DNA of 57,523 nucleotides from Patescibacteria group bacterium (GTDB taxonomy: Bacteria; Patescibacteriota; Gracilibacteria; JAHISY01), in the NCBI GenBank assembly GCA_043797545.1, contig JAZDPN010000073.1, positions 1 to 57,523 on the forward strand. The letters are read 5' to 3'. The translations under genes were made by a program, and so were the position numbers. Shown one piece after another: positions 1-56,637 of this stretch (position 1 is the first letter of the stretch; every line of letters starts with the position of its first letter). Below the pieces are notes generated by a model, which was not told the origin of the DNA, did not search any database, and worked only from the letters and a program-made list of their open reading frames with translations.

Positions 1-2
1 CA

Positions 3-263
3 AAATCGGGATTCCAATTTTTCGCGACGACGCTCTCGATCTCGCCGCACAAAAACGCCAACTGGTTGAACGAGATTGGTCGCGAATTGTCAAGCAGGCA
101 CGGTGTGAAATTTTTGGAAGCCGATTGGAAAAAATGCGATGGTTTCAAAAAATCACTCGGGCTCTCGAAAGATGCCAAGCTCGTCCGCCAAAATTACTGC
201 GGCTGTGTCTACTCACAACGTGCCAGTAGACAACTAGTAGACACGAGTAGACAAAATGACTAG
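3..263 (+). CDS. queH: epoxyqueuosine reductase QueH (DUF208), 3' fragment entering from the left edge
   Basis: Frame 3 is open from the window edge. The translation ...TTLSISPHKNANWLNEIG...LVRQNYCGCVYSQ ends in the QueH-type YCGC motif. The last 14 codons (RASRQLVDTSRQND) are encoded by the GTAGACA repeat module. Confidence 0.6.
   Translation, partial: KSGFQFFATTLSISPHKNANWLNEIGRELSSRHGVKFLEADWKKCDGFKKSLGLSKDAKLVRQNYCGCVYSQRASRQLVDTSRQND
225..254. repeat. GTAGACA heptamer-array module, copy A (AGTAGACAACTAGTAGACACGAGTAGACAA)
   Basis: Three GTAGACA heptamers spaced 10-11 nt apart. Near-identical to 1436-1465. Forms the C-terminal extension of queH. Confidence 0.9.
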
Positions 264-981
264 ACAACTCCCCCATCGCGCTTCGGAAAAAATGTCCACT
301 CGACAGCCGTTTTTTTGGGGCAAGACGAGTAGACAGGTTGTCGACATTCTCGGTTCCCCGCTCGACAACTTTGAGCAGCTGAATGAGCGCGCTTTGACGC
401 GCAATCGACAGACTCAGACAACTTCGCGCGATCTGCCTTTTAAATTTTGGCCGAAAGACAAAAATTGGAGCCTCGTTCAGCTCGCCGATCAGACTTTTGG
501 CTGGCTGCCGAATCGATATATAGTGAAACAAAAAAGCGCTAATTATTGGGAAAAAATTAAATTAGCGCCGAAAAACAAGCTGACTCCCCTGCTTTGCCCG
601 ACTCCAGCTAAATTTGAGAAATTTTTGAATCAGTTTAAAGGCGTTCCCTATCTCTGGGGCGGCACAACGAAGTCTGGGATAGACTGCTCGTCTTTCGCGC
701 AGAAACTGTTTTTCGAGCTTGGCGGAATTCTCTTACCGCGCAATTCGCGTGAGCAAAAAAAATGCGGGCTATCTGTCCAGTCGACAAAGCTGTGTCCACT
801 CGATTTACTTTTCTTTGTCCACTCGACAACTGGTCGTCACCATGTCGGTGTCTACTGGAATGATGAAGTTGTCCACTTCTGTCTAGACAAGCGTGGTTTG
901 TCTACTGAGTCGCTCGATTCGATGCAGAAACGCTATAATCACATCGCTACTCGGCGCATTTTCAAACTTCGAAATGCTTAA
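256..981 (+). CDS. NlpC/P60 family cell-wall peptidase with an SH3-like N-terminal part
   Basis: Contains VPYLWGGTTKSGIDCSSFAQKLF (catalytic Cys) and GRHHVGVYW (His). The start codon is uncertain because the N-terminus runs through repeat-derived sequence (TRQ/STRQ/TSRQ). Confidence 0.7.
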   Translation: MTRQLPHRASEKMSTRQPFFWGKTSRQVVDILGSPLDNFEQLNERALTRNRQTQTTSRDLPFKFWPKDKNWSLVQLADQTFGWLPNRYIVKQKSANYWEKIKLAPKNKLTPLLCPTPAKFEKFLNQFKGVPYLWGGTTKSGIDCSSFAQKLFFELGGILLPRNSREQKKCGLSVQSTKLCPLDLLFFVHSTTGRHHVGVYWNDEVVHFCLDKRGLSTESLDSMQKRYNHIATRRIFKLRNA

Positions 982-2554
982 GCAAATCAAGGCTGCGAAA
1001 AATATTCACGTCGTCGGAGTGAGCGGCACCGAGGGTGCGGCTGTGGCCCTTTTTTTGACAAAACTCGGACTCAAATATACGGCTCATGACTTCAGTGAAG
1101 AAGCTAAATTTCAGAAAAATTTTCTAGCGAGTCATCTCGGTTATTCGCCTGCAGAAAGAGAAAAAACACTTAAAGTGATTTTCAAAAATAGCTCTCTTAA
1201 CTTCAAGGAGAATTATCTCAAAGAGATTGAAAGTGCCGATCTGGTTTTCGTCTCCCAAAACTGGGAAGCCTACTCACCTAATCAAAAGTTGCGGAAAATT
1301 TTTGCCAAAAACCCGAGGAAATTCATGACGATCACTCAGCTTTATTTTGGAATTTTCCCGGGAAAGATTTTGGCTGTGACCGGAACGAACGGTAAATCGA
1401 CAACCACTAAGCTGATCGCTGAAATTATGTTCGCCAGTAGACAACCAGTAGACACGAGTAGACAATTAGCAGCGAAGTCCGCCGAAGCCTTGGTGAAGGC
1501 GGAACAACGGGTAGACAGTCGTGTTTATTTTACCGGCAATGACCGTCGTAATATCCAAATTCTCGACCAATTCGACAAATGGAAAAAGTCGGATTGGCTC
1601 GTGATCGAGGTATCCAACCGCCAGCTAAAATTTCCGCTTGGTCGCGCACCAGAAATCGGAGTGATTACGAATGTCACCCCGAATCATGTTGATGAATATA
1701 TAGATGGTTTTTCGGCTTACAAAAAGGGAAAATTTGCCTTGGTCGCTGGCCAAAAAAATAATGATATATGTGTGTTGAATTATGACAATATAATCACGCA
1801 CAGCTTTGCGAAAAAGGTAAAATCAAGAGTCGTTTTCTTCTCTGCTAAGAAGAAGTTGTCTACTGGCCTGTCCGCCGTAGCCTCCGCGAAGGCGGGTGTC
1901 TACATCGATGCTGGTTGGATAGTAGACAAAAACCAATCTGTCGACTCGCCAGCTAAAGTTTGCCTGCGCGCCGAAGCCAAAGTGGCAAAGGTGTGTCTAC
2001 TCGACAAGGTAAAATTGATCGGGGAACACAACTTTGAGAATGTTTTGGCGGCAGTCGCCGCGACTCGTGCGGCCGGAGTGAGCGCAAAGATAATTTGCCA
2101 AACGATCGAGCAATTTCGCGGCATCCCACAAAGACTGGAAGTTGTTTTCGAGAAAAACGGTGTGAAATTTATCAATGACTCAGCTTCGACAACGCCCGAA
2201 TCAACCATCGCGGCGTTGCAAAGTTTTCCAAAAAAATCGGTCAATTTGATCGCAGGCGGGGAGTCCAAAGGCATGGATTTTGCCAAGTTGGCACGTGAAA
2301 TTCGGACTCAAAAAACGCGAGTTATTCTACTCGAAAGTCCGCTCGCAAAAAGTTTGGCAAACGAATTGCGAAAATTAAAAGTTGGTTTTGAAATTGTGAA
2401 AGATTTGCGCACGGCTGTCGAGCTTTCCGCTCGCAATGCGCAAAAAGGCGACATCGTGCTCTTATCTCCGGCGGGTGCGTGGTTTTGCTATTTCTCAGGA
2501 AAAATCCCGCTCGGCGGCAGGGGATTCGAGCAATTTGCCAAAGCCCTGGCTTAA
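974..2554 (+). CDS. murD: UDP-N-acetylmuramoylalanine--D-glutamate ligase (Mur ligase family, MurD-like)
   Basis: N-terminal Rossmann motif VVGVSGTEGAAVALFL, P-loop GTNGKSTTT, and the C-terminal motifs NDSASTTPESTIAAL and GGESKGMDF. The ATG at 974 overlaps the stop of the previous gene. Three in-frame repeat insertions are present. Confidence 0.8.
   Translation: MLKQIKAAKNIHVVGVSGTEGAAVALFLTKLGLKYTAHDFSEEAKFQKNFLASHLGYSPAEREKTLKVIFKNSSLNFKENYLKEIESADLVFVSQNWEAYSPNQKLRKIFAKNPRKFMTITQLYFGIFPGKILAVTGTNGKSTTTKLIAEIMFASRQPVDTSRQLAAKSAEALVKAEQRVDSRVYFTGNDRRNIQILDQFDKWKKSDWLVIEVSNRQLKFPLGRAPEIGVITNVTPNHVDEYIDGFSAYKKGKFALVAGQKNNDICVLNYDNIITHSFAKKVKSRVVFFSAKKKLSTGLSAVASAKAGVYIDAGWIVDKNQSVDSPAKVCLRAEAKVAKVCLLDKVKLIGEHNFENVLAAVAATRAAGVSAKIICQTIEQFRGIPQRLEVVFEKNGVKFINDSASTTPESTIAALQSFPKKSVNLIAGGESKGMDFAKLAREIRTQKTRVILLESPLAKSLANELRKLKVGFEIVKDLRTAVELSARNAQKGDIVLLSPAGAWFCYFSGKIPLGGRGFEQFAKALA
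1436..1518. repeat. Composite repeat copy B: heptamer array + hairpin TCCGCCGAAGCCTTGGTGAAGGCGGA + terminal GTAGACA
   Basis: Positions 1436-1465 match copy A in 29 of 30 nt. The hairpin at 1478-1503 is almost identical to 3498-3523. Translated in frame as SRQPVDTSRQLAAKSAEALVKAEQRVDS. Confidence 0.9.
1857..1903. repeat. Short hairpin element flanked by direct TGTCTAC heptamers (opposite orientation)
   Basis: Layout is TGTCTAC(1857-1863) - CCGCCGTAGCCTCCGCGAAGGCGG - TGTCTAC(1897-1903). Translated inside murD as STGLSAVASAKAGVY. Confidence 0.75.
1921..2001. repeat. 81-bp element with 8-bp terminal inverted repeats AGTAGACA / TGTCTACT and a central hairpin TTTGCC...GGCAAA
   Basis: The inverted termini are at 1921-1928 and 1994-2001. 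The central stem is 1959-1964 / 1984-1989 and contains a GCCGAAGCC core as in the other copies. In frame inside murD. Confidence 0.7.
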
Positions 2555-2707
2555 TTATTTTTCCTCGTCGACCGGCTCATATTTGAGCGGTTTGAGCGAA
2601 GTAATCAGGATCTCGCAACCGCAATTTTCGCATTCGACAACTTCGCCAGCCTCGCTCGGCTCGTGCTCAATTTTGGTCTTACAATCTGGGCAAATAATCG
2701 TTATCAT
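2555..2707 (-). CDS. LysW-like zinc-ribbon amino-group-carrier-type protein (50 aa)
   Basis: The sequence MITIICPDCKTKIEHEPSEAGEVVECENCGCEILITSLKPLKYEPVDEEK has the CPxC...CxxCG ribbon, the GE-V-EC spacing and the acidic tail of LysW/ArgW. The C-terminus is DEEK rather than the canonical EDWGE. Confidence 0.6.
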   Translation of the reverse strand: MITIICPDCKTKIEHEPSEAGEVVECENCGCEILITSLKPLKYEPVDEEK

Positions 2708-2720
2708 TTGCGAGGATTTT

Positions 2721-3761
2721 ATGAATTTAATTTTGAATGTCAACCAAAATTTTGCGAATTTTTTGGACGAGTCGCGGCGCGACATTTGGCGCTACGCGAA
2801 AATTTTGAGCGATTCGAAAATTGTGAATTTTGTCGACCCGCTGCAAAAAGATTTCACGAAAATCGAGCGAATAGGGGATTTTTGGGTGAAACGGGAAGAC
2901 GAGAGCGCAGTCGGCTCACACAAATTTCGTGCACTCGCGTTCCAAATTTCCCAACTTCTAGAAGCGAAAATCGACCGTGCTGTCCTCTCAAGCTCTGGTA
3001 ATGCTGCAATCGCGGCCTCGCAAATCTTGCCAGAAAATACGAATTTGAAGCTCTTTGTGTTTTTGTCGAAGAAGACACCACCCGCCAAGTTGGCCGGGCT
3101 GAAATTTTCGAAAAACCTTGTTCCGATCCTCTCCGAGCGCCCATTGCGGATGGCGAAATATGCCGCGAAACACTTTGATTTAAGAGATTTACGTCCGTCA
3201 GTCGATCCTAACGCTGCTGTTGGTTTTTGCTCGCTCGGCTTCGAGATTTTCGAGCAAAAACCAGCTATTGAGAATATTTTCAGCTTCGCGACGAGCTTCG
3301 CGAGCGTCCGCGGCATCGCCGAGGCGTTTAAGTTTTTAGTCAAAATCGGTGCTCGGCAAAAAATGCCGAAGATTTTCGCGGTCACCTCGAGTGGAAGGCT
3401 GGCTGGCGAGTTGAGCAGGCAACGAGTAGACACGAGTAGACAAGCAAAAGTTGTCCAGTGGACAGAAGTAGACACAAGTGGACAACGAGTAGCGAAGTCC
3501 GCCGAAGCCTCGGCGAAGGCGGAACAGCTGGTAAATATCTCTGATGCAGAAATTTTGGCGACTCGTCAGAAACTGCCCGAGCTGAAAACTTCGAATGAAG
3601 GTTTGGCGAGTCTCGCCGCCGCCACGAAAATCAAACCGCAAGGGGAGACTTTGGTGATTTTGACGGGACGAGCTTGGCCGGACAAAAATGTTGATCTGGA
3701 TAAATTTGAAGAAGCTGACAATTTTGCAGAAGCTGATAAAATGGTCGCTCGTCATGGCTAA
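2721..3761 (+). CDS. PLP-dependent enzyme, fold type II (TrpB/ThrC/cysteine-synthase-like)
   Basis: Contains the lysine motif ESAVGSHKFRA, the SSSGNAAIAAS segment, and a glycine-poor TSSG loop. Carries repeat copy C in frame. The ATG at 2721 lies 13 bp from the divergent lysW-like start. Confidence 0.6.
   Translation: MNLILNVNQNFANFLDESRRDIWRYAKILSDSKIVNFVDPLQKDFTKIERIGDFWVKREDESAVGSHKFRALAFQISQLLEAKIDRAVLSSSGNAAIAASQILPENTNLKLFVFLSKKTPPAKLAGLKFSKNLVPILSERPLRMAKYAAKHFDLRDLRPSVDPNAAVGFCSLGFEIFEQKPAIENIFSFATSFASVRGIAEAFKFLVKIGARQKMPKIFAVTSSGRLAGELSRQRVDTSRQAKVVQWTEVDTSGQRVAKSAEASAKAEQLVNISDAEILATRQKLPELKTSNEGLASLAAATKIKPQGETLVILTGRAWPDKNVDLDKFEEADNFAEADKMVARHG
3425..3527. repeat. Composite repeat copy C (heptamer array, TGTCCAGTGGACA palindrome, hairpin TCCGCCGAAGCCTCGGCGAAGGCGGA)
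   Basis: GTAGACA occurs at 3426, 3436 and 3468, and GTGGACA variants are also present. The hairpin at 3498-3523 differs from 1478-1503 at 2 nt. Translated as SRQRVDTSRQAKVVQWTEVDTSGQRVAKSAEASAKAEQ. Confidence 0.9.
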
Positions 3762-4791
3762 TCTCCCCCGCAAAACGATTCATCTAGTCTCGCCTGACCC
3801 GCGCAAAATCGAGGGGTTGGAGCTGGCGTGGCCGCATTTCAAAATCTTCGTCTCGAAAATGAGTCCAGCGCTGCGCAAGGCCGAAAGAGCTGGCGCTGAA
3901 ATCGTGAATTTGAAGCTGCCAAAAATCAAGACTACGAGCGATTTATTGGTCGAATTAATCGGCCGGAAATTGGTGCGCAAGGGGAACCGGGTTTTGGTTT
4001 TCAAAAACCTGCCGAAAATCGAGCGGCTCGCCGCGAAACACAAATTCGAAATCCTAATGCCCGGATCGAGCTTTTTGAATTTGCTCGAAGACAAAATCAA
4101 CTTCGTGGATTTTTGTCACGAATTCGCGCTGCCGATTTTGCCGACGACGATTCGCGAGCTAAATCTCGTGCGCTTTCTCGAACCGGTCGTGATTCAGACG
4201 CGACGCGGACACGCCGGTGAGTCGACTTTTTTTATCCGCTCGCCCAAAGAGCTGGACAATTTGAAACGCAAAATAGGGGACTGGCCGGTCAAAATCACGC
4301 CGCTCAAAAAACTGCCTACTTTCACGCTCGATTTTTGTGTCACTGCGAACGGGATTTACGCGACGCAGCCGTTTTTCCAAATCACGGGCGATCCGAAATT
4401 GAATCCGCTGCCAGGCGGGACGGGCGGAATTGATTTCGACATCGCGGCGAAATTGTCGGACGCGACGAAAGGACGCATCGGCGCGCTCGTCGAGCTCGTC
4501 GGCGCAGCTTTGGAAAAAATCGGCTACCGCGGAATCGCGGGAATCGATTTCCTCGTCGATGACGCCAGCTCGAAAATTTGGCTGCTCGAGCTCAATCCGC
4601 GGCTGCTGAGCAATCTCGGTTTCGTGACACGGAAACAAGTCGAGGCGGGGGAGATTCCCCTTTTACAAATCCATCTTTTGGAATTTTTGGGTGAGGATTT
4701 ACGGAAATTCGATGCGCCAAAATTGAGCCGCGTGAATTCGGGAAGATTTGAAAATCCGCACCCGGACGCGCGGATGTTGATCGAAATTTAG
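3754..4791 (+). CDS. ATP-grasp family ligase
   Basis: The C-terminal GYRGIAGIDFLVDDASSKIWLLELNPRL is a typical ATP-grasp Mg/ATP motif. The ATG at 3754 overlaps the stop of the PLP gene (ATGGCTAA). Confidence 0.65.
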   Translation: MANLPRKTIHLVSPDPRKIEGLELAWPHFKIFVSKMSPALRKAERAGAEIVNLKLPKIKTTSDLLVELIGRKLVRKGNRVLVFKNLPKIERLAAKHKFEILMPGSSFLNLLEDKINFVDFCHEFALPILPTTIRELNLVRFLEPVVIQTRRGHAGESTFFIRSPKELDNLKRKIGDWPVKITPLKKLPTFTLDFCVTANGIYATQPFFQITGDPKLNPLPGGTGGIDFDIAAKLSDATKGRIGALVELVGAALEKIGYRGIAGIDFLVDDASSKIWLLELNPRLLSNLGFVTRKQVEAGEIPLLQIHLLEFLGEDLRKFDAPKLSRVNSGRFENPHPDARMLIEI

Positions 4792-9060: not shown

Positions 9061-9543
9061 GTGAAAATTGCGCTTATTTCAGATTCGCACGGCGCGCTCG
9101 ATCGACTCGAGGAAGTTTTGCACAATTTCGACACGGCTGGGATTCGCGAAATCGTGCACGCGGGGGATTTCGCGCTTGGAGAAATCGTGGAACTTTTGTC
9201 TAATTTTCCACAGTTGAGTTTCCGGATCGCACGGGGAAACTGCGATGTTGATACTGAGAAAATTTTGGCAATTGCGAATTTACCGAATGTCGAACTCGAG
9301 GAAATTTTGGAGTTCGAGCTCGGCGGACGGCGCATCGCGGTCGCGCATCGGATTCGAGATTTAGCCAATTCAGACGCGCCAATCTTGATTTCTGGACACA
9401 CGCATATTCCGAGCGCGAAAGCGGTGAATGGAAAATTATTTTTGAATCCGGGCTCGCTGATGGATGACGGCGGCTATTTCATTTTGGATTTGGCGAATTT
9501 AATTGTTGAGCGCAAGCTTTTTTCTGACAAAGCTCTGGCTTAA
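9061..9543 (+). CDS. YfcE/MJ0936-family metallophosphoesterase
   Basis: Motifs ISDSHG, HAGDF, GNCD and SGHTH. GTG start. Confidence 0.75.
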   Translation: MKIALISDSHGALDRLEEVLHNFDTAGIREIVHAGDFALGEIVELLSNFPQLSFRIARGNCDVDTEKILAIANLPNVELEEILEFELGGRRIAVAHRIRDLANSDAPILISGHTHIPSAKAVNGKLFLNPGSLMDDGGYFILDLANLIVERKLFSDKALA

Positions 9544-9567
9544 AATTGGGCTGCGCTATTTGGAAAC

Positions 9568-10083
9568 ATGGACCGAATCGAAGTTCACAAAACGATCGCC
9601 ATCGTCACTATCAAGCTAATGATTTTGCAGCTGTTTTTTGCCTTGGTATATTTGGCGACATCTTTGATTAGTGATTCTGTTGATCTATACAACAACGGCA
9701 CTTTTATGAATCTAATCGCTTACGACAGTCTGACTTTTATAATTATTGCTTTGGTGCATTTGGCAATCACTTCGTATATTTTTTTGCAGTGGACGATGGA
9801 AAAATACATTCTCCTGCCCGACAAAATCCGCCATCAGTGGGGGATTCTTTTGCGGCAGACCAATTCTTGGGACATTAGCAATATCGAAACTGGCTATATC
9901 ACCGAAAGCGTAGTCGCGCGGCTTTTTGGTTATGGCACGATTACCTTTCACAGCCCGACTTTGGAAACGCGCGTTGTTTTGCGCGATGTTCCCTCGCCTT
10001 CTTTGGTCACGAATTACATTGAGAAAAATTTGGCTTTGCTTGGTAAATCGCCAATTAAGTATTTGAAAGCTGATTCTAAATAA
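9568..10083 (+). CDS. Membrane protein with a bacterial PH (YdbS/YdbT-like) domain
   Basis: Two N-terminal TM helices, then a WDISNIETGYITESVVARLFGYGTITFHS pattern. Confidence 0.45.
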   Translation: MDRIEVHKTIAIVTIKLMILQLFFALVYLATSLISDSVDLYNNGTFMNLIAYDSLTFIIIALVHLAITSYIFLQWTMEKYILLPDKIRHQWGILLRQTNSWDISNIETGYITESVVARLFGYGTITFHSPTLETRVVLRDVPSPSLVTNYIEKNLALLGKSPIKYLKADSK

Positions 10084-10142
10084 AAAATAATGTTGCATTT
10101 AGCTAACTTTGAGTTAGAATTAGCTCACTTTAATTTTTAAAA

Positions 10143-10523
10143 ATGCAGTACAAAAGATATCGCTCGCTCAAAATCGGACTTGTGATGCTACTCGCTGCGA
10201 CTGTCGGTGGCTTCGTCAGTCAGGGAAATTTTGTGATTCCGCTGGTCGCTTTTGCGATCGCCGCAGGAACAATTTTTCTAGTCAGTCGTCACGTTGATTC
10301 CGTTCAAAATGATGAGCGCATCGAAAAAATCGGCGGCAAAGCGGCGCGCTGGATACTCGCGATTTTTGCAATCGGAGGCGCGATCGCGAGCATCGTCCTC
10401 ACCGCGCTCGCCAAAGATAATCCGATTTATCAAATTCCGGCCTATATTTTTTCGGGTCTAGTTTGGTTTGTCTTGGTTGGACATCTGGTTTTGTTTTATT
10501 ATTTCAATCGCAAAGGCGAATGA
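10143..10523 (+). CDS. DUF2178-like membrane protein
   Basis: Four TM helices. Translationally coupled (ATGA) to a small XRE regulator, which is the usual DUF2178 context. Confidence 0.4.
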
Positions 10524-10714
10524 AAAACCGGATCAAAATTTTTCGCGCACAGTTTGATTTGACACAGAACGCACTCGCGGAAAAAGTCGGCGTGCGTCGC
10601 GAGACGATCGTTTTTCTCGAACAAGGAAAATACAATCCCTCGCTCGAGCTCGCTTTTCGCATCGCGAAAGTTTTTGGCGAACCGCTGGAAAATGTTTTTA
10701 TTTGGGAAAAATAA
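10520..10714 (+). CDS. XRE-family HTH transcriptional regulator (YozG-like)
   Basis: The sequence [48 protein letters not shown] is a canonical Cro/C1 HTH. Confidence 0.8.
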
Positions 10715-10717
10715 ATC

Positions 10718-10740
10718 TGGCGGAGGGAGAGAGATTCGAA
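10718..10740 (-). repeat. Direct copy of the 3' 23 nt of tRNA-Ser(GGA)
   Basis: TGGCGGAGGGAGAGAGATTCGAA versus 10881-10903 TGGCGGAGGGAGGGGGATTCGAA (21 of 23), in the same orientation as the tRNA. Confidence 0.9.
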
Positions 10741-10880
10741 GCTGGCTTCAAGTTCTGTTTTTAATTTGAGATTGTCGGCGGCGCGCGCCGAAATGGTTCG
10801 CGAAATACGGAACGCGAGCTACCAGGTGTCTCACCCACTCCCCGCGCCAAAAAATTCGCCTGTGCGGGGGCAATTTTTCG

Positions 10881-10970
10881 TGGCGGAGGGAGGGGGATTC
10901 GAACCCCCGAGGCAGTTGCCCGCCTACCCGCTTTCCAAGCGAGCGCACTCGGCCACTATGCGATCCCTCC
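10881..10970 (-). tRNA. tRNA-Ser (anticodon GGA), long variable arm, CCA encoded
   Basis: The reverse complement folds with acceptor GGAGGGA/TCCCTCC, anticodon loop TTGGAAA, an extra arm GGCGGGCAACTGCC, and T arm GGGGG-TTCGAAT-CCCCC. Confidence 0.85.
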
Positions 10971-11034
10971 GTTTTAGCGAAATTTCAAAACTGGGCGAGG
11001 CAACCCTCACCCCGATTTGCGAAGTGAGGTTGAA

Positions 11035-11247
11035 TTATTTTTCGGAGGAGGACTCCGCCGCCACATTCTTTTCTTTGGTCGGCTTTTGCAAAGTCCGCAG
11101 ACAGCTCGTGCAAATCACGACTTTCACACCGGAAAATTTCTTCGAAATTAAATTCGGGAGAAAGCGGCGGCGTGTGCGACGTTTGGAGTGGGAAACTTGA
11201 TTTCCGACTCCTGGTTTTTTGCCACAAAGATTGCAAACTTTACTCAT
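11035..11247 (-). CDS. rpmB: 50S ribosomal protein L28
   Basis: [33 protein letters not shown] is the conserved L28 N-terminus. Confidence 0.9.
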
Positions 11248-11293
11248 TGGGGAATGTTAAAATTAACCGAGCCGGGGGATTTTACGAGAAAAA

Positions 11294-11920
11294 ATGTTTT
11301 TACTCAACCTTTCGCCTTTCGAAATCCTGTCCTGGGTGGTCGGCTTCTTGGTCGCGCTCTCGGTCCATGAGGCTGCTCACGCTGCTGCTGCGAATTACCT
11401 CGGTGATCCAACCGCGAAATTTGCAGGCCGGATGAGCCTGAATCCCTTGAGACACCTTGATCCGGTTGGAACTTTGTTTTTAATTTTCGCAGGTTTCGGC
11501 TGGGGCCGACCAGTGCCTGTCAATCCGGCCAATTTCGCGAATCCACGCGCCGGAGAGATTTTAACTTCGCTAGCTGGGCCGCTCGCGAACTTCGTAATAG
11601 CGCTCGCCCTGGCGATTCCTCACAATCTGCTTGACCCCGGGTCGCTCGGCTTTCTTTTTGTGCAGAATGTAATGTTTGTGAATATAGTTTTGATGGTTTT
11701 CAATCTCCTGCCTATCCCGCCACTGGATGGAGGCGGTGTCGCGGTGAATTTCTTACCGATTGAGCTGGGCGAGAAATACCGCCGCAACGGTCCGATTTTG
11801 CTATTTGCTTTGATTGCGTTCGATTGGGTCTTTAAAACAAGTCTTTTGTGGGGCATCCTCGGAAAATTGGTCAATATCGTGTTTGTAGCGATTAACCTAA
11901 GCACAACATTTGGGGGCTAG
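11294..11920 (+). CDS. Site-2 protease family (peptidase M50) membrane metalloprotease
   Basis: HEAAH zinc motif and NLLPIPPLDGG motif within a polytopic membrane protein. Confidence 0.8.
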   Translation: MFLLNLSPFEILSWVVGFLVALSVHEAAHAAAANYLGDPTAKFAGRMSLNPLRHLDPVGTLFLIFAGFGWGRPVPVNPANFANPRAGEILTSLAGPLANFVIALALAIPHNLLDPGSLGFLFVQNVMFVNIVLMVFNLLPIPPLDGGGVAVNFLPIELGEKYRRNGPILLFALIAFDWVFKTSLLWGILGKLVNIVFVAINLSTTFGG

Positions 11921-12203
11921 TTTGGACGAAAACAAGGCGTGAAAATAATTTCAAATGTAGCGCAACTCGATTTGATTGCACACAAAATTTGTTCGGGTAA
12001 ATTGGAGCCAATTCTTTCACATTCCCCCAAAGGGGAGCCGACTAAACATCGGTTCGCGAACTCGTCGCGAGGCCAAATCGCTCACAAAATTTAAGGGGCT
12101 TCGTACATTCTCTCGGTCAAATACGATCGCGGGAAGAAACCCCACCTGAATTACAGGATTGCTGCTTTCCGGAGCAGACGGTGTGAAAGAAGAATATCGA
12201 GAA

Positions 12204-12232
12204 CCTTCCCGATGCCTATCGGGAGGGTTTTT
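12204..12232. terminator. Hairpin CCTTCCCGAT-GCCT-ATCGGGAGG + TTTTT (possibly bidirectional)
   Basis: A 10-bp stem followed by a T run on the + strand. It sits directly after the stop of the minus-strand gene that ends at 12236. Confidence 0.55.
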
Positions 12233-12235
12233 GTC

Positions 12236-13144
12236 TTACCTGAAAGCAATCAAAGTGCCATACATAGTATGGGGAGCGTATTTTGCATTTTGCGCGAGCA
12301 AACCCTTTTCAAAAGTCTCCTTTACTGAGTTATCCGACCCGAAATTCAACTCCTCGGCCGTGACTGGTGGAATCGGCTGAATCTCGTTTGTGTTATTGGT
12401 TCTTTTAATCCCGACATAACCCAACTCGCTGTCAATCACCCGACCAGGATATTCGTGACGGTAACTAGTCTTCACGTCCTCGTCGAGCTCACTCATTTTT
12501 TTCATCTCTTGATCGCTGCCCAACTCGCCCCACTTGCCGTTTTTTTGACCACAAAAATACGAGTTCAAATTCTTTTCGCGAGCGGCGGCGAGAAAATTTT
12601 TGACCGCAGCGGGATTGTGCGAAATCGCGACAAACGCATCGACATTTTGCGAAAAGAAAAGTTGGTTGAGCTCTTTCGCGATCGGCGTCCCGCGCGAATT
12701 GGGATCGACGACGGTCAGCATCAAATCGGCGACGTGCGAATTTTGCGGCCCATCGGAAGTCAAACTGCTCGCGAAACCGACAGCTTTGCCATCTTTCATC
12801 GCGACAAAAATACGATCCGACTCGCAAATTTCATTGAGATTGGCGACTGCTTCTTGATAAATTTTTGGGTCTGTCGGATTCCAATTAATTTTTCTATCGC
12901 GCGGCGCAAATGCGACGGTCGACAACTTGCCGAAAAGTCGCACCAATGAATTTTCGTTTGCTTGTGACTTCCAAATTTCCGAATCAGTCACATCAATCTG
13001 CAAAACTTCATAACCCGGCAGATTCGCGGTTTCCAGTTTTTTGATTTTGCAACCGAGTGGACTCGACAAAACATTGGTGATTTCTCTTCGCCCGGAACGA
13101 GAAATTGGAGATTCGGAATTTGGTTTATGCTGATCGACCATCAC
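12236..13144 (-). CDS. Hypothetical protein, possible GNAT-like central region
   Basis: Long ORF with ordinary composition. The segment FVAMKDGKAVGFASSL...VVDPNSRGTPIAKEL is reminiscent of an acetyltransferase fold. Confidence 0.4.
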   Translation of the reverse strand: MMVDQHKPNSESPISRSGRREITNVLSSPLGCKIKKLETANLPGYEVLQIDVTDSEIWKSQANENSLVRLFGKLSTVAFAPRDRKINWNPTDPKIYQEAVANLNEICESDRIFVAMKDGKAVGFASSLTSDGPQNSHVADLMLTVVDPNSRGTPIAKELNQLFFSQNVDAFVAISHNPAAVKNFLAAAREKNLNSYFCGQKNGKWGELGSDQEMKKMSELDEDVKTSYRHEYPGRVIDSELGYVGIKRTNNTNEIQPIPPVTAEELNFGSDNSVKETFEKGLLAQNAKYAPHTMYGTLIAFR

Positions 13145-13189
13145 AAAAATCCGCCAATTTTAGCAGAAATATAAGCTAAAAACAATTCG

Positions 13190-13232
13190 TTTTATTTCAA
13201 ATACTCATCCCACGCCTTGATCGGCAACTCGA
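13190..13232. repeat. Direct repeat, left copy: duplicate of the last 13 codons, stop codon and 3 downstream nt of carB
   Basis: GTTTTATTTCAAATACTCATCCCACGCCTTGATCGGCAACTCGA matches 14560-14602 with one mismatch. Confidence 0.9.
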
Positions 13233-13280: not shown

Positions 13281-13475
13281 ATGTTAAAATGCGCAGAAAC
13301 AAAAACTATGAAATCCAAACAAAAATCACTCCTGCCGCTTGCGGCTGAGATGCTGCAAACGCTCGACGCGGCACAAGAAAAAGAATTGGCACGCAAAAAA
13401 ATACTCGCGAAACGAACCGAGGAACTTTCTTCGCGAATCGAAGATTTCGAACAAACACAAAAACTTTTGGGTTAA
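13281..13475 (+). CDS. Small coiled-coil protein (64 aa), cassette gene 1
   Basis: ORF in an AT-rich segment. Its stop overlaps the next start (TAATG). Confidence 0.4.
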   Translation: MLKCAETKTMKSKQKSLLPLAAEMLQTLDAAQEKELARKKILAKRTEELSSRIEDFEQTQKLLG

Positions 13476-14560
13476 TGTCAATCGAAAACAAAGACCGACC
13501 ACCTGTTGCCAAAACAGAAACTGAGCTTGAGCGTTTAATGCCCGAGTACGCCGAAATGCGTGATGCGATTATTAATGTAGAGGTGGCCGCAAACAAAATG
13601 GAGCTGCAAAAAAGACAAGCCGACGATATTAACAATGAAATCGTTGATCGTCTGTCAACAATTAAAGTGAAAATAGATCAGCTCGCCAAAAAATATCCCG
13701 ACAACGATAGTCTGCGGATACTTATGGATATGTACGAAGATATTAGTCAGGATTTTATTTACAGTAGGAAAACTCGGGTTGACACAAGTTTGCAAAAAAG
13801 ATTGGCGGAAGTGCAAAAATCTGTCGTCGATGCTGGAATTACTACCGTTCCCTCGGAAAATATTGATAACCCGAAAACAAAAGAATTGGTCGCAAAGATG
13901 CAGCAACTCGGAATCCCGATTGAACGAGTCACAACTCGCCCAAACGCAGACCGAACTGTGATTCTGATAGTCTGGGCCCATCCCAATCCCGGGATGAATG
14001 AGGAAGTAAGAAAGGAGTTCGGCATCTTTGAAAGTCAAAACAAAGTTAATGATTATATTGCCAAATTATCTCAAGCTGGAATTTCAAATCATGTACTTAC
14101 CGAGGGAATTCCGGCCAATATAAGTCCTGAGCTTAAGGCAAAAGTCTTAGCTGAAATGGCCCAAAATGGGTTTCCGTTTATAAATTTAACAAATATTTCT
14201 ATTGAGGGTGTCGAAAACAAAGCTTTTTTGCTAAAAACAGCAACCGATTTAAGTTCAGCTAATTACCAAATCAGGGCAACTATCAACAATATAGTCATGG
14301 CTCACAACATCGAAAATTCTATGCGGTCTGGAGAGGTTTCGATCGCCGTCATGGGCGCGGCTCACGAATTTGAAATCGATCAGAGCGAACATCAATTGTC
14401 TTACTCGCAGGCCACCTCTTTCGAAGCTAATGCTAATGTGATTGTCATAAATACGGCAAGGGAGTTCTACGAAGCTACTCGCGACCCTAAAAAAATGGAG
14501 CTCATGAAGCAAGCAGCAGCCAATTTTCAGGCAGGGATTAAAGAACAGTTTTCGAAATAG
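13475..14560 (+). CDS. Hypothetical protein (361 aa), cassette gene 2
   Basis: Long AT-rich ORF with an N-terminal coiled coil. The C-terminal half carries VWAHPNP and VMGAAHEFE motifs. I can assign no family with confidence. Confidence 0.55.
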   Translation: MSIENKDRPPVAKTETELERLMPEYAEMRDAIINVEVAANKMELQKRQADDINNEIVDRLSTIKVKIDQLAKKYPDNDSLRILMDMYEDISQDFIYSRKTRVDTSLQKRLAEVQKSVVDAGITTVPSENIDNPKTKELVAKMQQLGIPIERVTTRPNADRTVILIVWAHPNPGMNEEVRKEFGIFESQNKVNDYIAKLSQAGISNHVLTEGIPANISPELKAKVLAEMAQNGFPFINLTNISIEGVENKAFLLKTATDLSSANYQIRATINNIVMAHNIENSMRSGEVSIAVMGAAHEFEIDQSEHQLSYSQATSFEANANVIVINTAREFYEATRDPKKMELMKQAAANFQAGIKEQFSK

Positions 14561-14602
14561 TTTTATTTCAAATACTCATCCCACGCCTTGATCGGCAGCT
14601 CG
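14560..14602. repeat. Direct repeat, right copy (functional 3' end of carB)
   Basis: See 13190-13232. Confidence 0.9.
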
Positions 14603-17600
14603 AGATCGCGATATTGCTCGAGCGAATCGACAACCAATTTCGCAACCTGCGGATTGACGAACAACGGAATGCCGAAGTCCGTCGCGCGGCGGCGAATCAG
14701 ATAGCCGTTCGTCATTTCCTCGGCTTGATAATTTTTCGGAATATTCACGACCATGCCAATTTGTTTTTGGGCAAAAAGGTCGAGGACGTTTGGCTTCTGC
14801 TTCTCGAGCGGAAAATGCACCAAAGTATTCGCCACACCGTTGTCGGTCAAAAAGCGAGAAGTGCCCGGCGTCGCGAAAAGTTTGAAACCCATCGCGATCA
14901 GTTTTTGCGCGGAGGGGAGGAAGGCCAATTTCGAATCAATCGATCCAGTCGAGATGAGAATATTTTTCTTCGGCAAACGGAAGCCGACCGCGATCTGCGC
15001 TTTGAGAAAAGCTTCGTGCAAATTCTCGCCGAAACACGCGACTTCGCCGGTCGACGCCATCTCGACGCCGAGCGTCGGATCCGCACCTTTGAGCCGCGAG
15101 AAAGAAAACTGCGCGGCTTTCACGCCGACGTGATTGAGGTCGAGAGTTTGGTAGTTTTGTTTCCGCCACGCTTTCGGCGCGACTTTGCCGAGCATCGCCT
15201 CGATCGCGATCGCGATGAAATTGTGCCCGGCAGTTTTGGAAACGAACGGGAACGAGCGGCTAGCTCGTAAATTTAACTCTATGACCGCGACACGATTTTC
15301 TTTCGCGAGAAATTGAATGTTGAATGGGCCAGTGATTTTGAGTTCCGCGGCCAATTTTTTCGCGATAATTTTGATGCGTTTAATCGTCTCGAGATAAGTT
15401 TTTTGCGGCGGCAAAACCAAAGTCGCGTCGCCCGAGTGGACGCCAGCATTTTCGACATGCTCGGAAACCGCGAAAATTACGAGCTTCCCGTCGGCGGCGA
15501 CTCCGTCGAAATCGATTTCGCGCGCGCCTTCTTCAAATTTCGAAATCACGACGGGCGCGTCGGTTGAAATTTTCGTGGCCTTGGCCAGATAATTTTGGAG
15601 CTGCTCGGCGGTGAACGCGACGGACATCGCCGCGCCGGAGAGAACATAACTCGGACGAACGAGCACCGGGTAGCCGACTTTTTTCGCGAATGACATCGCG
15701 TCAGAATTTTGGGTGAACTCGGACCACTGCGGTTGGTCGATCTCGAGCGAATCGCAAAGCTGCGAGAATTTTTCGCGCGACTCGGCGCGGTCGATCGAAA
15801 CCGGGGAAGTTCCGAAAATCGGAACTTTTTCCGCCGCCAATTTTCCGACGAGATTATTCGGAATTTGTCCGCCCGTCGAGACGACGACGCCTTTCGGTTT
15901 CGTGAAATCGAGAATGTCGAGGACGCGCTCGACGGAAAGCTCGTCGAAATAAAGTTGGTCGCAGGAGTCGTAATCCGTCGAAACAGTCTCGGGATTGTAA
16001 TTGATCATGATTGTCTCGAAACCGTTTTTCGCTAAAGTTTGGACGGCGGAGACACAGCACCAATCGAATTCGACGGACGAACCAATGCAGTACGCGCCGC
16101 TTCCCAAAACAACCGCGCGGGGCCGTAGCCCGCCGAAGCTCGAAGAGCGAAGGCCGGGTTTTTTGGAGAATTTAATTTCGTCGCTCGTATCGCCGTGGTA
16201 GGTCAAATAAAGATAATTTGTTTTCGCGGGAAACTCCGCAGCAAAAGTGTCGATTTTTTTGACGACCGGGAGAATACCGAATTTTTTGCGGCGTTTGCGA
16301 ATTTCCAATTCTCCGACGCCCGCACGCCACGCGATTTGCGAATCGGAAAAGCCCAATTTTTTTGCACGGGAAAACTCGTCTTTCGACAATTTTCCTTTTT
16401 GGGCTTTGAGAATGTCGCGCTCGAAGTCGGCGATGTTTTTGCATTTTTCGAGAAACCACTCGTCGATGCCGGTCAGTTTTTTAATTTTTGCGACCGACCA
16501 ACCGTCGCGCAGCGCGCGCGCGATCGCGAAAATTCTTTCCGGCGTCGGCTTGGAAATAACTTTTTCGAGCGAGTCGAATTTGAAATTGGCGTGACTGAAA
16601 CCGTACGCGCCGACCTGCAACATGCGCAGCGCTTTTTGCAAAACTTCCTCGAACGAGCGACCGATCGCCATCACTTCGCCGACCGATTTCATTTCGCTGC
16701 CAATCTCGGCGGAAACTTTACGGAATTTTTGGAGATCCCAGCGCGGGATTTTGAGAACGAGATAATCGAGCGCCGGTTCGAAACACGCGGTCGTGTTGCC
16801 GGTCACCGCATTCGGGACTTCGTCGAGTCTTTTGCCGAGCGCGAGTTTCGCAGCGACATGCGCGAGCGGATAGCCGGTCGCTTTCGACGCGAGCGCGGAG
16901 GAGCGCGACAAGCGCGCATTTACTTCGATCACACGATAATCAATTTTGTGCGGATCGGTCGGATTCGGATGCAGCGCGTATTGAATATTGCATTCGCCGA
17001 CGATGCCGAGGTGTCGAATCACGCGAATCCCGATTTCGCGGAGCGCGTGATATTCGTAATTGTTCAAAGTTTGCGACGGCGCGACGACGATCGACTCGCC
17101 GGTGTGAATGCCGAGCGGATCGAAATTTTCCATGTTACAAACCGTCAAACAGGTGTCGGCGGAATCGCGAACGACTTCGTATTCGATTTCTTTCCAGCCG
17201 CGCAAATCTTCTTCGATCAAAACTTGCGGCGACGCCGAGAACGCGACTTCGAGTAATTTTTTCAGCTCGGCAGGATTTTGAGCGAAGCCCGAGCCTTTGC
17301 CACCGAGCGCGTATGCTGCGCGAACAATCACCGGGAAACCAATTTTTTTGGCGGCGGCGATTCCTTCAGCTTCGTTGCGCACGGCTTGCGCACGCGCGGT
17401 CGTCACTCCAATTTCGTTTAATTTTTTGACGAAAAGTTCGCGGTCTTCGGTCGCCTCGATCGCAGAAATTTGCGTGCCGAGAACTCGAACTTTGTGTTTT
17501 TTGAAAACACCGCGCTTTTCCAGCTCAACTCCGCAATTGAGCGCGGTCTGACCACCGAAAGCTAGCAAAATTCCGTCCGGCTTTTCTTTTTCGATGATCC

Positions 17601-22019: not shown

Positions 22020-22577
22020 ATGTCCGCCCAAAAAGATTTTTATTCGATTACCCGCGAGGAAGCCGCTGAAAAATTGGGTATTTCGACACGCACGCTCGAC
22101 CGCTATTTGAAGCGCGGAAAATTGAAATTCAAACTCTCGCCGAGTCGGCAAGTTTTGATTCACGCCCAGGATTTGGAAAGGGTCGCGAAAATTTTGGCGA
22201 AAATTCCTGCGCCAAAAAAGGTCAGCCCGAAAGAAAAAACTTTTGCGGCCTCGGCCGAGGCCGAAGCTTTTGAGATCCCAACCGAGGCCGTCGAGGAAAA
22301 AATTTTTCGCGAGCTGTACGAGGAGGCGAATAAGGATTTAAAAGCGAAACAGGAAAAACTTGAAGCAGCGAGCTTCCGCGTCGGTCAGCTCGAGGCGCAG
22401 CTCAAAAGCTCAGTTCCTTTGCTTGAACACAAACAAAAAGAACAGGAGATGCATAGTGAAAATTCACGCCTTAAGGAAAAACTCGTCGGGGCCATCCTGA
22501 AGAGTTGGGTTTTCCTCGGCATAGCCATATTCGCGACGATCGTCGCAGTCGTTTTGGGTTTCTTGAATTATCTGTAA
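22020..22577 (+). CDS. HTH (excisionase/MerR-like) - coiled coil - C-terminal TM anchor protein
   Basis: ITREEAAEKLGISTRTLDRYLKRGKL is an HTH_17-type motif. It is followed by a long coiled coil and a terminal hydrophobic helix. Confidence 0.55.
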   Translation: MSAQKDFYSITREEAAEKLGISTRTLDRYLKRGKLKFKLSPSRQVLIHAQDLERVAKILAKIPAPKKVSPKEKTFAASAEAEAFEIPTEAVEEKIFRELYEEANKDLKAKQEKLEAASFRVGQLEAQLKSSVPLLEHKQKEQEMHSENSRLKEKLVGAILKSWVFLGIAIFATIVAVVLGFLNYL

Positions 22578-27559: not shown

Positions 27560-28660
27560 CTAAATCTTTAACGGCATGATTAAGTGCAAATAGTCTTTAA
27601 TCTTGGCTGGGCGAATCACCGCGGGCACCATTTTTTCACCAAGCTCAAGCTCGAGATCACTTGTCCCAAGTGCGGAAAGCGCTTCTAGCAAGTAGTTGGC
27701 ATTGAGCGCGACTATGTTGGGCGCGCCCGCAATCGTCGCGGCAACCTCGGCCTCTTCTTCACCGATCTGGGTCGCATCCGAGAGAATGCGTAATTTCTTG
27801 TCCGCTGAGACTTCAATCTTGACTGAGTGCGAATCACGGGTGAAGAGGTTGACTCTTTTTACTGCGGTCGCAATTTCTTCTGTCTTGACTGAGATCGTGG
27901 TCGTATGTTTTTTCGGAACAATCTGCTCGTAATCAGGATAGCTACCTTCAATCAACCTCGAAGCCAGCTCGACATTTTTGTAAAGGAATAAAACCTGGTT
28001 CGCGGAGATATCGAGCGAGATTGTTTCTTTGCCTTTTTCGAGAATACGCGCCAGCTCCTGAACGGTCCGGGTCGGAATGATAATCGAAACATCTTTCTCT
28101 GGCGGAGTCAGTGGTTTAAGAATTTTTTCCGAAAGACGGTAGGAATCAGTCGCGGCCAGTCGAACCTCTTTTTTGGTCGCGCGGAGATGAACTCCGGCCA
28201 GAACCGGCCGAACCATGTCGCGCGCGGCAGCAAAGGCGACTTGATTAATCGCGTCGAGCAAATCGCCTGCAGCCAAGGTCAGGGAAACTTCTTTTTTGAC
28301 CTGAGGAATCAAGGGGAATTCGTCCGCGGAAATACCTTTGATCCTAGTCTTAGACTTGGCCGATGAAATCTGCAGGTCGAGACCTTCTGAGTTTTTTAGC
28401 TCAACCTTGCCTGAGCTGAGCAGACCGACGTAATTCGTAAAAAGTCGGGCCGGGATCGTGAGTGCGCCTTCGTTTTTGATTTCAGATTTAATCGAAGTCG
28501 TGATCGCGATTTCCAGATTCGTCGCTGCGAAAGTCAGCTTCTTGTTCTCGGCTTTGAGGAGAATGTTGTTGAGAACCGGCAGGGTCGAATTCAAATTAAC
28601 CGCCTTGGAAACGGTCGTGAGCGCGGCGAGAAGATCTTTCTGTTCACAGGAGAGCAGCAT
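27560..28660 (-). CDS. dnaN: DNA polymerase III beta sliding clamp
   Basis: 366 aa. The N-terminal L..AL..V.KAV......PVLNNILL pattern and the three-domain length fit the family. Confidence 0.85.
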   Translation of the reverse strand: MLLSCEQKDLLAALTTVSKAVNLNSTLPVLNNILLKAENKKLTFAATNLEIAITTSIKSEIKNEGALTIPARLFTNYVGLLSSGKVELKNSEGLDLQISSAKSKTRIKGISADEFPLIPQVKKEVSLTLAAGDLLDAINQVAFAAARDMVRPVLAGVHLRATKKEVRLAATDSYRLSEKILKPLTPPEKDVSIIIPTRTVQELARILEKGKETISLDISANQVLFLYKNVELASRLIEGSYPDYEQIVPKKHTTTISVKTEEIATAVKRVNLFTRDSHSVKIEVSADKKLRILSDATQIGEEEAEVAATIAGAPNIVALNANYLLEALSALGTSDLELELGEKMVPAVIRPAKIKDYLHLIMPLKI

Positions 28661-55914: not shown

Positions 55915-56637
55915 ATGCAAATCGCTGCGCTGCAAAAACTTACGCTTTTGGATTTTCCCGGTCGGACGGCCTGCACGGTTTTCACGCTCGGCTGCAATTT
56001 TCGCTGCGGCTTTTGTCACAATCCCGAATTAGTTTTGCCGGAAAAATTTCCCAAATTAATTCTCGAAGAAAAATTTTTCGAATTTCTTGATCGCCGCAAA
56101 GGCTTACTCGACGGCGTATGCATCACGGGCGGTGAGCCGACTTTGCAAAAAGATTTACTCGAATTCTGTAAAAAAATTCGCAAGCGCGGTTTCACGGTGA
56201 AGCTCGATACGAACGGTTCGCAGCCGGAAATTTTGGAAAAACTTTTTCGCGCGGGTTTACTCGACTATGTCGCGCTGGACATCAAAGCGTCGCCGGAAAA
56301 TTATTCCAAAATTGCGGGCGTCGACCAACCTTCGCCAAGGCTACGGCAGGCAAGTATTTTCGAAAAAGTGCGCGCCTCCAAAAATTTGATCGCGCAGTCG
56401 GGTGTCGAATACGAACTGCGCACGACCGTGATTCGCGAATTGCACGATGAAAAAGAATTACAAAAAATTCTTGAATTCATCCGCGGTGCGCCAAAATATT
56501 TTCTCCAAAATTTTTCCAATCGCGGCGGTTGTCTCAATCCGGCTTTCGAAAAACTGCACGGCTTCACGAATTCTGAATTGGAAAAAATGTGCGAGCGTGC
56601 GCGTGAGTTTGTGGGGGAGTGCGGAATTCGAAATTAA
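55915..56637 (+). CDS. nrdG: Anaerobic ribonucleotide reductase activating protein (radical SAM)
   Basis: GCNFRCGFCHNP cluster motif and GGEPTL. Confidence 0.85.
   Translation: MQIAALQKLTLLDFPGRTACTVFTLGCNFRCGFCHNPELVLPEKFPKLILEEKFFEFLDRRKGLLDGVCITGGEPTLQKDLLEFCKKIRKRGFTVKLDTNGSQPEILEKLFRAGLLDYVALDIKASPENYSKIAGVDQPSPRLRQASIFEKVRASKNLIAQSGVEYELRTTVIRELHDEKELQKILEFIRGAPKYFLQNFSNRGGCLNPAFEKLHGFTNSELEKMCERAREFVGECGIRN

Follow-up and report, generated by a model that had tools for sequence, protein, structure and literature searches.

In-frame, repeat-derived loop expansions in a MurD-like ligase gene and its neighbours in Patescibacteria

A 57,523-nt contig of a Patescibacteria group bacterium of the Gracilibacteria (JAZDPN010000073.1), the whole of which is here called the window, with positions counted from its first letter, holds near its left end a gene for a MurD-like Mur ligase with three extra segments. 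We find that these segments are in-frame, repeat-derived loop expansions on an otherwise intact MurD fold and that they recur at the same sites in relatives, whose genomes were sampled as stretches of 20-57 kb. In-frame palindromic repeats in bacterial genes are already known; what sets this case apart is a repeat family, built on the heptamer GTAGACA, that is specific to one locus, phased with the helix, found again at the orthologous loops throughout the clade and tied to a conserved helix-turn-helix (HTH) gene.

The three expanded loops of the MurD-like ligase

The ligase gene occupies positions 974-2554 of the plus strand and encodes 526 aa, starting with MLKQIK as set by the open reading frame (ORF) and the starts of homologues. 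All three elements pointed out in an earlier sequence-only reading were located in it as described. Insert 1 (1433-1519, plus strand) consists of three phased AGTAGACA units spaced by 10-11 nt (1436, 1447 and 1457), followed by the GC-rich module CCGCCGAAGCCTTGGTGAAGGCGG (1479-1502) and by a further GTAGACA, the fourth, at 1511; it encodes SRQPVDTSRQLAAKSAEALVKAEQRVDS. In the protein it separates the helix behind the P-loop from the strand that follows, starts 9-10 codons past GTNGKSTTT and puts ~25 aa extra ahead of YFTGND; the sequence-only reading had given 11 codons and about 28 aa. At the same site the related contig L001 has four phased heptamers without the GC module, which in the window sits between heptamers three and four.

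Insert 2 (1857-1903, plus strand) is a 30-nt GC module (1867-1896, encoding LSAVASAKAG) between two direct TGTCTAC heptamers at 1857 and 1897, which enclose CCGCCGTAGCCTCCGCGAAGGCGG. These heptamers had been likened to a 7-bp target duplication. In L001 and L016, however, the empty site TGTCTACtggTGTCTAC (LSTGVY) already contains both of them, and the window differs by exactly 30 nt (10 codons) in between, so the flanking repeats are no target-site duplication. A similar GC module occupies site 2 in L125. Insert 3 (1921-2001, plus strand) expands a beta-hairpin turn and comprises AGTAGACA at 1921-1928, a diverged GC module (GCGCCGAAGCC) and the palindrome TGTCTACTCGACA, with TGTCTACT as its other end at 1994-2001. 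Its 5′ arm codes for VDK of WIVDK, and its 3′ arm corresponds to a palindrome, TGTCCACTCGACA (ICPLDK), that is conserved among L001, L002 and L016. Both arms therefore stand on codons aligned with conserved residues and are not the ends of a discrete insert, which removes the proposed layout of a miniature inverted-repeat transposable element (MITE). What fills site 3 differs among relatives, an example being the L001 hairpin CCTGCC-TACC-GGCAGG.

That the segments might simply be loops of normal length in other MurD proteins was checked in a 31-sequence alignment (the window protein and 30 homologues), where all three appear as gaps in the homologues of 478-496 aa; the solved structure of Streptococcus agalactiae MurD, aligned to the family profile, likewise has short turns at the three sites. 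Every homologue above ~57% identity is expanded in its own way, and to its own length, at least at one of these sites. At least 15 homologues at 57-69% identity have such variable expansions, rich in SRQ, VDK, SSRQRVDK, LSTGQ and CPVD, so the initial view of the insertions as unusual is not supported.

The ligase is probably active. An alignment-based AlphaFold2 model reaches a mean predicted local distance difference test score (pLDDT) of 86.8 and a predicted template modelling score (pTM) of 0.85, with pLDDT below 50 only at residues 161-177, 297-299 and 322-331, which are the three inserts; since the model is uncertain in the inserts alone, the enzyme is likely intact. Among Foldseek matches the best 32 are all MurD (E-values 1e-27 to 7e-34), with template modelling (TM) scores up to 0.85 when normalised on E. 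coli MurD. The ORF is uninterrupted in all relatives, and the family's invariant columns are kept (P-loop G136/G139/K140/T142/T143, E211, H237, K252, H351/N355, R386, D401, K431). The doubt that the sequence-only reading had raised over enzyme activity thus finds no backing in the predicted structure, which does not suggest a disabled ligase.

A helically phased repeat family confined to one gene cluster

In the window GTAGACA occurs 18 times against 1.23 expected, a count that none of 100 shuffled sequences attains, and all 18 copies fall within positions 206-3474. The same interval holds all five of the 13-bp palindromes of the window, each of them before 3465, and of the helically phased half-sites 17 lie in the first 3.6 kb, against none in the other 53.9 kb (3601-57523). 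Beyond murD the family reaches the tail of the QueH gene, the start and interior of the NlpC/P60 gene and the PALP gene, most copies being intragenic.

Units from eight orthologous clusters, anchored on GACA and kept if they had a partner at 10, 11 or 21 nt, give the consensus C-n-A-G-T-[A/G/C]-G-A-C-A-(A), i.e. CnAGTVGACA, which covers GTAGACA and its close variants. Information content is high from -6 to +4 and amounts to ~0.1 bit in the spacers. Arrays run head-to-tail, units occur in either orientation, and half-sites are frequently paired face to face as the 13-bp palindrome TGTCnA(C/G)TnGACA. Distances between successive half-sites on the same strand peak at 10-11 (60 cases), 21 (45), 31-32 (22) and 41-43 nt (27), a repeat period of ~10.5 bp. 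In frame, the family yields SRQ, VDx, LST and CPLD peptides. The heptamer is translated in at least five combinations of frame and orientation (SRQ, VD, VY, LST, CLL), which favours selection or recognition at the level of DNA rather than of the peptide.

Outside murD, the first array of the window (206-347, plus strand) spans the QueH stop codon and the NlpC/P60 start codon. It contains five perfect heptamers, at 206 (minus strand) and at 226, 237, 247 and 329 (plus strand), together with a palindrome TGTCCACTCGACA at 293 and a CTAGACA directly behind the NlpC/P60 ATG. Further copies lie within the NlpC/P60 gene (774-905, plus strand), namely two 13-bp palindromes (774, 816), two reverse heptamers (849, 899) and three variants (793, 870, 880). 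In the PALP gene (3411-3533, plus strand) heptamers stand together with the palindrome TGTCCAGTGGACA and a GC module, CCGCCGAAGCCTCGGCGAAGGCGG, which amounts to a loop expansion of ~40 aa; along 67 nt this copy matches murD copy 1 at 87% identity.

The GC-rich module, of ~26 nt and the form CCGCCGWAGCC..GCGAAGGCGG, is joined to some of the heptamer arrays. It is present in the window (three copies and one diverged), in L123 (two and a diverged tandem copy), in L124 and in L125, has no copies in L001, L002 and L016, and is invariably flanked by two direct heptamers where it occurs. Its stems measure 5-6 bp, with the GTAG of each heptamer 6-17 nt away from the stem; in GTAG-type repetitive extragenic palindromes that tetranucleotide adjoins an imperfect palindrome of 20-40 bp. 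When all copies were folded as DNA and as RNA, z-scores against shuffles were -0.5 to -0.7 for the modules of copies 1 and 2, -1.5 for that of copy 3, -2.1 for copy 3 as a whole and -3.0, the lowest value, for the PALP copy. The hairpins described in the sequence-only reading are therefore present as short stems and mostly no more stable than shuffled sequence, and the idea of stable hairpins was rejected. A weak match to the module (79%, TGCCTGCCGTAGCCTTGGCGAAGGTTGGT) at 56324-56352 on the minus strand, within the ORF 55915-56637, has neither flanking heptamers nor a stable fold (z = +1.2). An Rfam scan of window positions 1-4000 returned nothing relevant, with one sub-threshold match to a long non-coding RNA.

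The motif is confined to the QueH-NlpC-MurD-PALP stretch in the window and in nine related contigs (L001, L002, L016, L123, L124, L125, L152, L195 and L248); in L001, for example, it spans 9232-12501 of 21.5 kb, and in L248 7874-11130 of 20 kb. In the two closest relatives, L246 and L247, a search of 41 kb around the HTH gene found no copy. The array at the NlpC start codon is arranged alike in the window, L001 and L002. L002 has 24 palindromes in 4.7 kb and, between QueH and NlpC, a 450-nt non-coding array with higher-order repeats of 21 nt, 32 nt and ~130 nt. Arrays without any hairpin predominate in L001, L002 and L016. Between orthologous clusters the copy number of the motif varies at the same loops, and the lengths of the NlpC/P60, MurD-like and PALP genes vary too: NlpC/P60 ranges over 229-289 aa and PALP over 309-414 aa, the latter with a variable-length insert that the alignment places behind SSGxLAGEL. 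The neighbouring LysW-like protein is always 50 aa long (74-90% identical) and the ATP-grasp protein essentially fixed at ~345 aa (83% identity to the nearest relatives), both free of repeats. A chimeric contig was ruled out, since the gene order from the cluster to carbamoyl-phosphate synthase (CPSase) is collinear with L001, L246 and L248, and the left end of the window is therefore no chimera.

Protein-binding sites, mobile elements or neutral expansion

Motif-only scans for three phased heptamers in genome and metagenome collections returned, among Patescibacteria, two recurrent contexts: the QueH/NlpC-P60/MurD-like/PALP cluster and a gene for a protein of ~185-225 aa whose HTH_17 domain is N-terminal, with a coiled coil and, at the C-terminus, a transmembrane helix. 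The second context comprises nine scan loci and a tenth, L249, found via homology and not by the scans. Arrays lie directly upstream of the gene and, in the nine scan loci, occasionally also within its variable linker. The HTH proteins are 28-53% identical to the two queries, taken from L045 and L026, and the helix GISTRTLDRY is conserved across the family, the window orthologue included. Both contexts meet on one 105-kb contig, which has the MurD-cluster arrays (L248) and four heptamers at most 45 nt from the HTH start (L249); in this genome TGTCTACTCAA overlaps the start codons of both the NlpC and the HTH gene. In the window the candidate trans-acting factor is encoded at 22020-22577 (plus strand), a 185-aa protein with HTH_17 (Pfam 4.6e-8), a coiled coil and a C-terminal transmembrane helix. 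Its gene lies ~20 kb from the cluster and has no adjoining arrays. The closest relative of the window genome, P0121, has an HTH protein 91% identical to that of the window, and its contig ends short of the MurD cluster.

As side observations on this gene, its variable linker in the window contains a perfect 16-nt palindrome, GGCCTCGGCCGAGGCC (22247-22262, encoding AASAEAEA), in which GCCGAAGC is common with the GC module of the murD inserts. In L026, L045, L132 and L168 the recognition-helix peptide RTVDRY is encoded by acaGTAGACAgg, which places the putative binding word inside the gene of the putative binder. In all relatives (L246, L247, L249) the dnaN gene (window 27560-28660, minus strand) is found ~5 kb away from that for the HTH protein, with no dnaA adjoining.

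With a probability of about 0.5, we read the heptamers as sites that a sequence-specific protein binds cooperatively, the membrane-anchored HTH_17 protein being the likeliest binder; they would form an operator or tether whose local in-frame expansion is tolerated. A conserved core, variable spacers and helical phasing are all observed, and arrays co-occur, in promoter-proximal position, with a conserved DNA-binding protein gene at the ten HTH_17 loci. The heptamers would be recognised as double-stranded DNA by a protein that binds cooperatively on a single helical face. As candidate for this binder the clade-specific membrane-anchored HTH_17/coiled-coil protein ranks first; elsewhere in the group, the promoter and start codon of its gene bear the arrays. 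Those over the NlpC/P60 start, running into the genes, may then be the operator or tethering region of a cell-wall-related cluster. Copy number would shift via slippage or gene conversion between adjacent arrays, and only frame-keeping changes in tolerant loops would survive, so that expansions would keep returning to a few hot spots, namely the PALP loop, the N-terminus of NlpC and the three loops of MurD. As a secondary passenger, the GC module would be copied from array to array.

Arrays of the operator or iteron type include plasmid iterons, ParR-parC, MraZ boxes, the direct repeats of ToxR and the RacA-ram sites. The murD-cluster repeats resemble them in the short conserved core, the free spacers, the ~10.5-bp period and the mixture of direct and inverted units; they also lie over promoters or start codons, with the motif ahead of a conserved DNA-binding protein gene. 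They differ in that operator arrays are normally intergenic, whereas the copies described here are mostly translated within enzymes and their binding is putative, and in that the candidate binder is a tail-anchored HTH_17 protein without a characterised relative.

Several points weigh against binding sites. The HTH promoters of the window and of its two closest relatives (L246 and L247) are motif-free, so simple autoregulation is weakened and is not universal. The link between HTH gene and motif is, at the level of sequence, an association only, and the genomes, sampled as stated, may hold further array loci. To our knowledge, operator-like arrays at such density in coding sequence have little precedent. 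An underpowered synonymous-site test under the motifs gave 71% vs 51% codon identity on just 5 usable columns. Finally, the presence or absence of the GC module and the 87% identity between copies in two genes would also be expected from a mobile element.

Extending the binding-site reading to the clade (Gracilibacteria/Peregrinibacteria relatives) is more tentative. A tail-anchored HTH_17 protein could bind arrays at its own promoter and in the cluster, selection for the sites, with intergenic space scarce, having placed them in coding DNA, and turnover of these sites would leave insertions in the MurD-like, NlpC/P60 and PALP proteins; the protein might be a membrane-bound regulator or a tether between chromosome and membrane. 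If the arrays are indeed protein-binding sites, selection at the DNA level on a regulatory or architectural motif would shape enzymes, with loop insertions as a by-product of site turnover, and a testable regulator-motif-target triplet centred on cell-wall genes would be available for uncultivated Patescibacteria.

The rival that survives best, though we hold it to be unlikely, takes the copies for selfish intragenic palindromic repeats, of the kind of repetitive extragenic palindromes (REP), Rickettsia palindromic elements (RPE) or MITEs, i.e. a small non-autonomous element of GTAG-tagged heptamers and a GC stem-loop that inserts or homes into existing heptamer arrays, would persist only in frame in tolerant loops and has no host function. 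Short in-frame REP and RPE insertions in housekeeping genes (20-30 aa), at times twice in one gene, are documented (PMC3733652). Those of the murD cluster resemble them in being in frame, in adding ~10-30 aa, occasionally at several sites per gene, and in sparing the fold, and GTAG is found inside the heptamer (PMC3733652). The three murD inserts moreover coincide with the sole low-pLDDT segments, as in-frame RPE insertions might. Such an element would also account for the GC module, present in some relatives, absent from others and always set between direct heptamers, and for the close similarity of the murD and PALP copies. In addition, the related genome of L001 encodes a transposase resembling the REP-associated tyrosine transposases (RAYT), of the Y1 type, that carries another in-frame palindromic repeat.

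Against this stands the lack of dispersal: neither the remaining 54 kb of the window nor the 41 kb searched in its closest relatives contains a copy. REP and RPE are dispersed genome-wide around a stable palindrome of 20-40 bp or 100-150 bp, whereas here 7-13-bp phased units with weak, optional stem-loops are restricted to one cluster and to the same loops in each orthologue. RPE units are long dispersed palindromes or bear a CGTC tag; these are short, occur with or without the 26-nt module and have no such tag. GTAG-type REP sequences are high-copy, mainly extragenic and genome-wide, in contrast to one 3.3-kb and mostly intragenic stretch, and come with a cognate RAYT gene flanked by the repeat. 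In the window neither a Y1 nor another related transposase was detected, the best match of a RAYT/Y1 search having E = 2.8, and the RAYT-like gene of L001 is flanked by a different repeat, GACCCTGAGGGTC.

MITEs share with these copies the small size, the 8-bp inverted ends of copy 3 and the presence or absence of the GC module between relatives. Such ends are found in copy 3 only, copies 1 and 2 and the PALP copy being flanked by direct heptamers, and target-site duplication, consistent terminal inverted repeats, dispersal and a parent insertion sequence are all lacking in the window. Stems of 5-6 bp that mostly fold no better than shuffles, and the dominance of hairpin-less arrays in L001, L002 and L016, fit a mobile hairpin element poorly, and helical phasing and the recurrent link to HTH promoters would be left unexplained. 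Should the arrays nevertheless be selfish repeats, REP/RPE-type in-frame colonisation would extend to the Candidate Phyla Radiation, with an unusually strict locus specificity. The RAYT-like gene mentioned above lies at L001:699-1334 (minus strand); its in-frame palindromic repeat, GACCCTCAGGGTC, encodes SRPSGSGATLRVG, and repeats of the GACCCTCAGGGTC type occur twice just upstream of the gene (1340-1400), once preceded by GTAG.

Less probable again is a neutral local expansion, in which short quasi-palindromes of the genes themselves (such as those encoding LSTGVY and ICPLDK) would have seeded slippage, template switching and gene conversion with no trans-acting factor, leaving low-complexity arrays where loops are weakly constrained. 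The differing copy numbers of orthologues at fixed sites and the higher-order repeats of the L002 intergenic array agree with such a process, and a 21-nt double unit keeps the reading frame. Yet the spacers diverge while the core is conserved, arrays run in both orientations, and the heptamer stands at the non-homologous HTH promoter even where lineages share just ~30% identity in the HTH protein; satellite-like drift would lose it there. Very improbable is protein-level selection on SRQ, VDK and LST peptides as flexible linkers or as modification or interaction sites in MurD, NlpC and PALP: the frame is always preserved and the inserts are surface-like and disordered, but one DNA word is read in all the frames and orientations listed above, is also found throughout the 450-nt non-coding array of L002 and upstream of HTH genes, and keeps its codons fixed although synonymous ones would serve.

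The ligase cluster and matches elsewhere

The window protein shares with canonical MurD (UDP-MurNAc-L-Ala:D-Glu ligase) the three-domain fold, the P-loop and Mur-ligase motifs, the Pfam domains Mur_ligase_M and Mur_ligase_C and a TIGR01087 score of 238 bits, above the cut-off of 211.95. It differs in its three enlarged loops, in having DSASTT where canonical MurD has DSKATN and in its genomic context, which in all relatives consists of QueH, NlpC/P60, LysW-like, PALP and ATP-grasp genes and not of the division and cell wall (dcw) cluster. The order QueH / NlpC-P60 / MurD-like / LysW-like Zn-ribbon (minus strand) / PALP / ATP-grasp, at 66-4791 in the window, is conserved in L001, L002, L123, L125 and L248, and some homologues are NlpC-MurD or PALP-MurD fusions. 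A second Mur ligase was looked for in the 57-kb window and none was found. Judged by sequence, the murD label rests on the family score and not on genomic context, and the role of an essential cell-wall ligase, given to the protein in the sequence-only reading, is putative. The cluster and the fusions suggest that this Mur ligase acts in a pathway outside dcw, possibly one of the carrier-protein type. A decaying or inactive gene, whose insertions would mark relaxed constraint, might be read from three expansions within 570 nt, the DSASTT motif and the non-dcw surroundings, and is hardly tenable beside an ORF intact in each relative, the many invariant columns, P-loop included, and the confident MurD fold of the model.

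For annotation this carries two warnings: in these MurD-like proteins, differences in length and low-complexity loops stem from repeats and are not assembly errors, and the name murD should be taken as based on a family score. In L125, from a Gracilibacteria metagenome-assembled genome (MAG), the PALP gene (2286-3530) has four in-frame stops under table 11; this genome, unlike the window, probably uses code 25 (UGA = Gly).

Known DNA words of other function were considered for the heptamer. A DNA uptake sequence or uptake signal sequence (DUS/USS), a Chi site or a word like the FtsK-orienting polar sequences (KOPS) is out, the motif being absent from 94% of the window, and clustered regularly interspaced short palindromic repeats (CRISPR) are out because units of 21-32 nt leave no space for spacers. 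TTGTC[C/T]AC resembles actinobacterial DnaA boxes; DnaA boxes or an origin were nonetheless rejected, with the conserved CACA end missing, no GC-skew switch near the locus and dnaN 25 kb off. The cumulative GC skew of the window peaks near 48 kb, beside an AT-rich stretch at 46-48 kb.

Most matches of the triple-heptamer scans are generic tandem repeats of 10-11 nt with identical spacers in unrelated organisms, which are uninformative for the murD-cluster family, and the matches in Phycisphaeraceae, Alphaproteobacteria and Lachnospiraceae appear to be unrelated elements that use the same word. In the Phycisphaeraceae MAG JBBDXA01, an element of ~130 nt was met at 13 scan loci on many contigs. 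It has the form GTGTCTA-GTAGACAcgagGTAGACAcgagGTAGACA ... AAATGGCTACCAGGGGGTAGGGGGGTAG-GTAGACAtgTGTCTAC, with the same heptamer in phase, and looks MITE-like or like a small-RNA gene. At six loci in Lachnospiraceae/Clostridia, three phased GTAGACA stand ~60-80 nt from the 3′ end of a tRNA-like sequence (GTTCGAxTCCCGTC), and these units may be an arm of an integrated element. Elsewhere in the window, a 49-nt direct repeat (94% identical, 13184-13232 and 14555-14603) brackets the ORF at 13475-14560.

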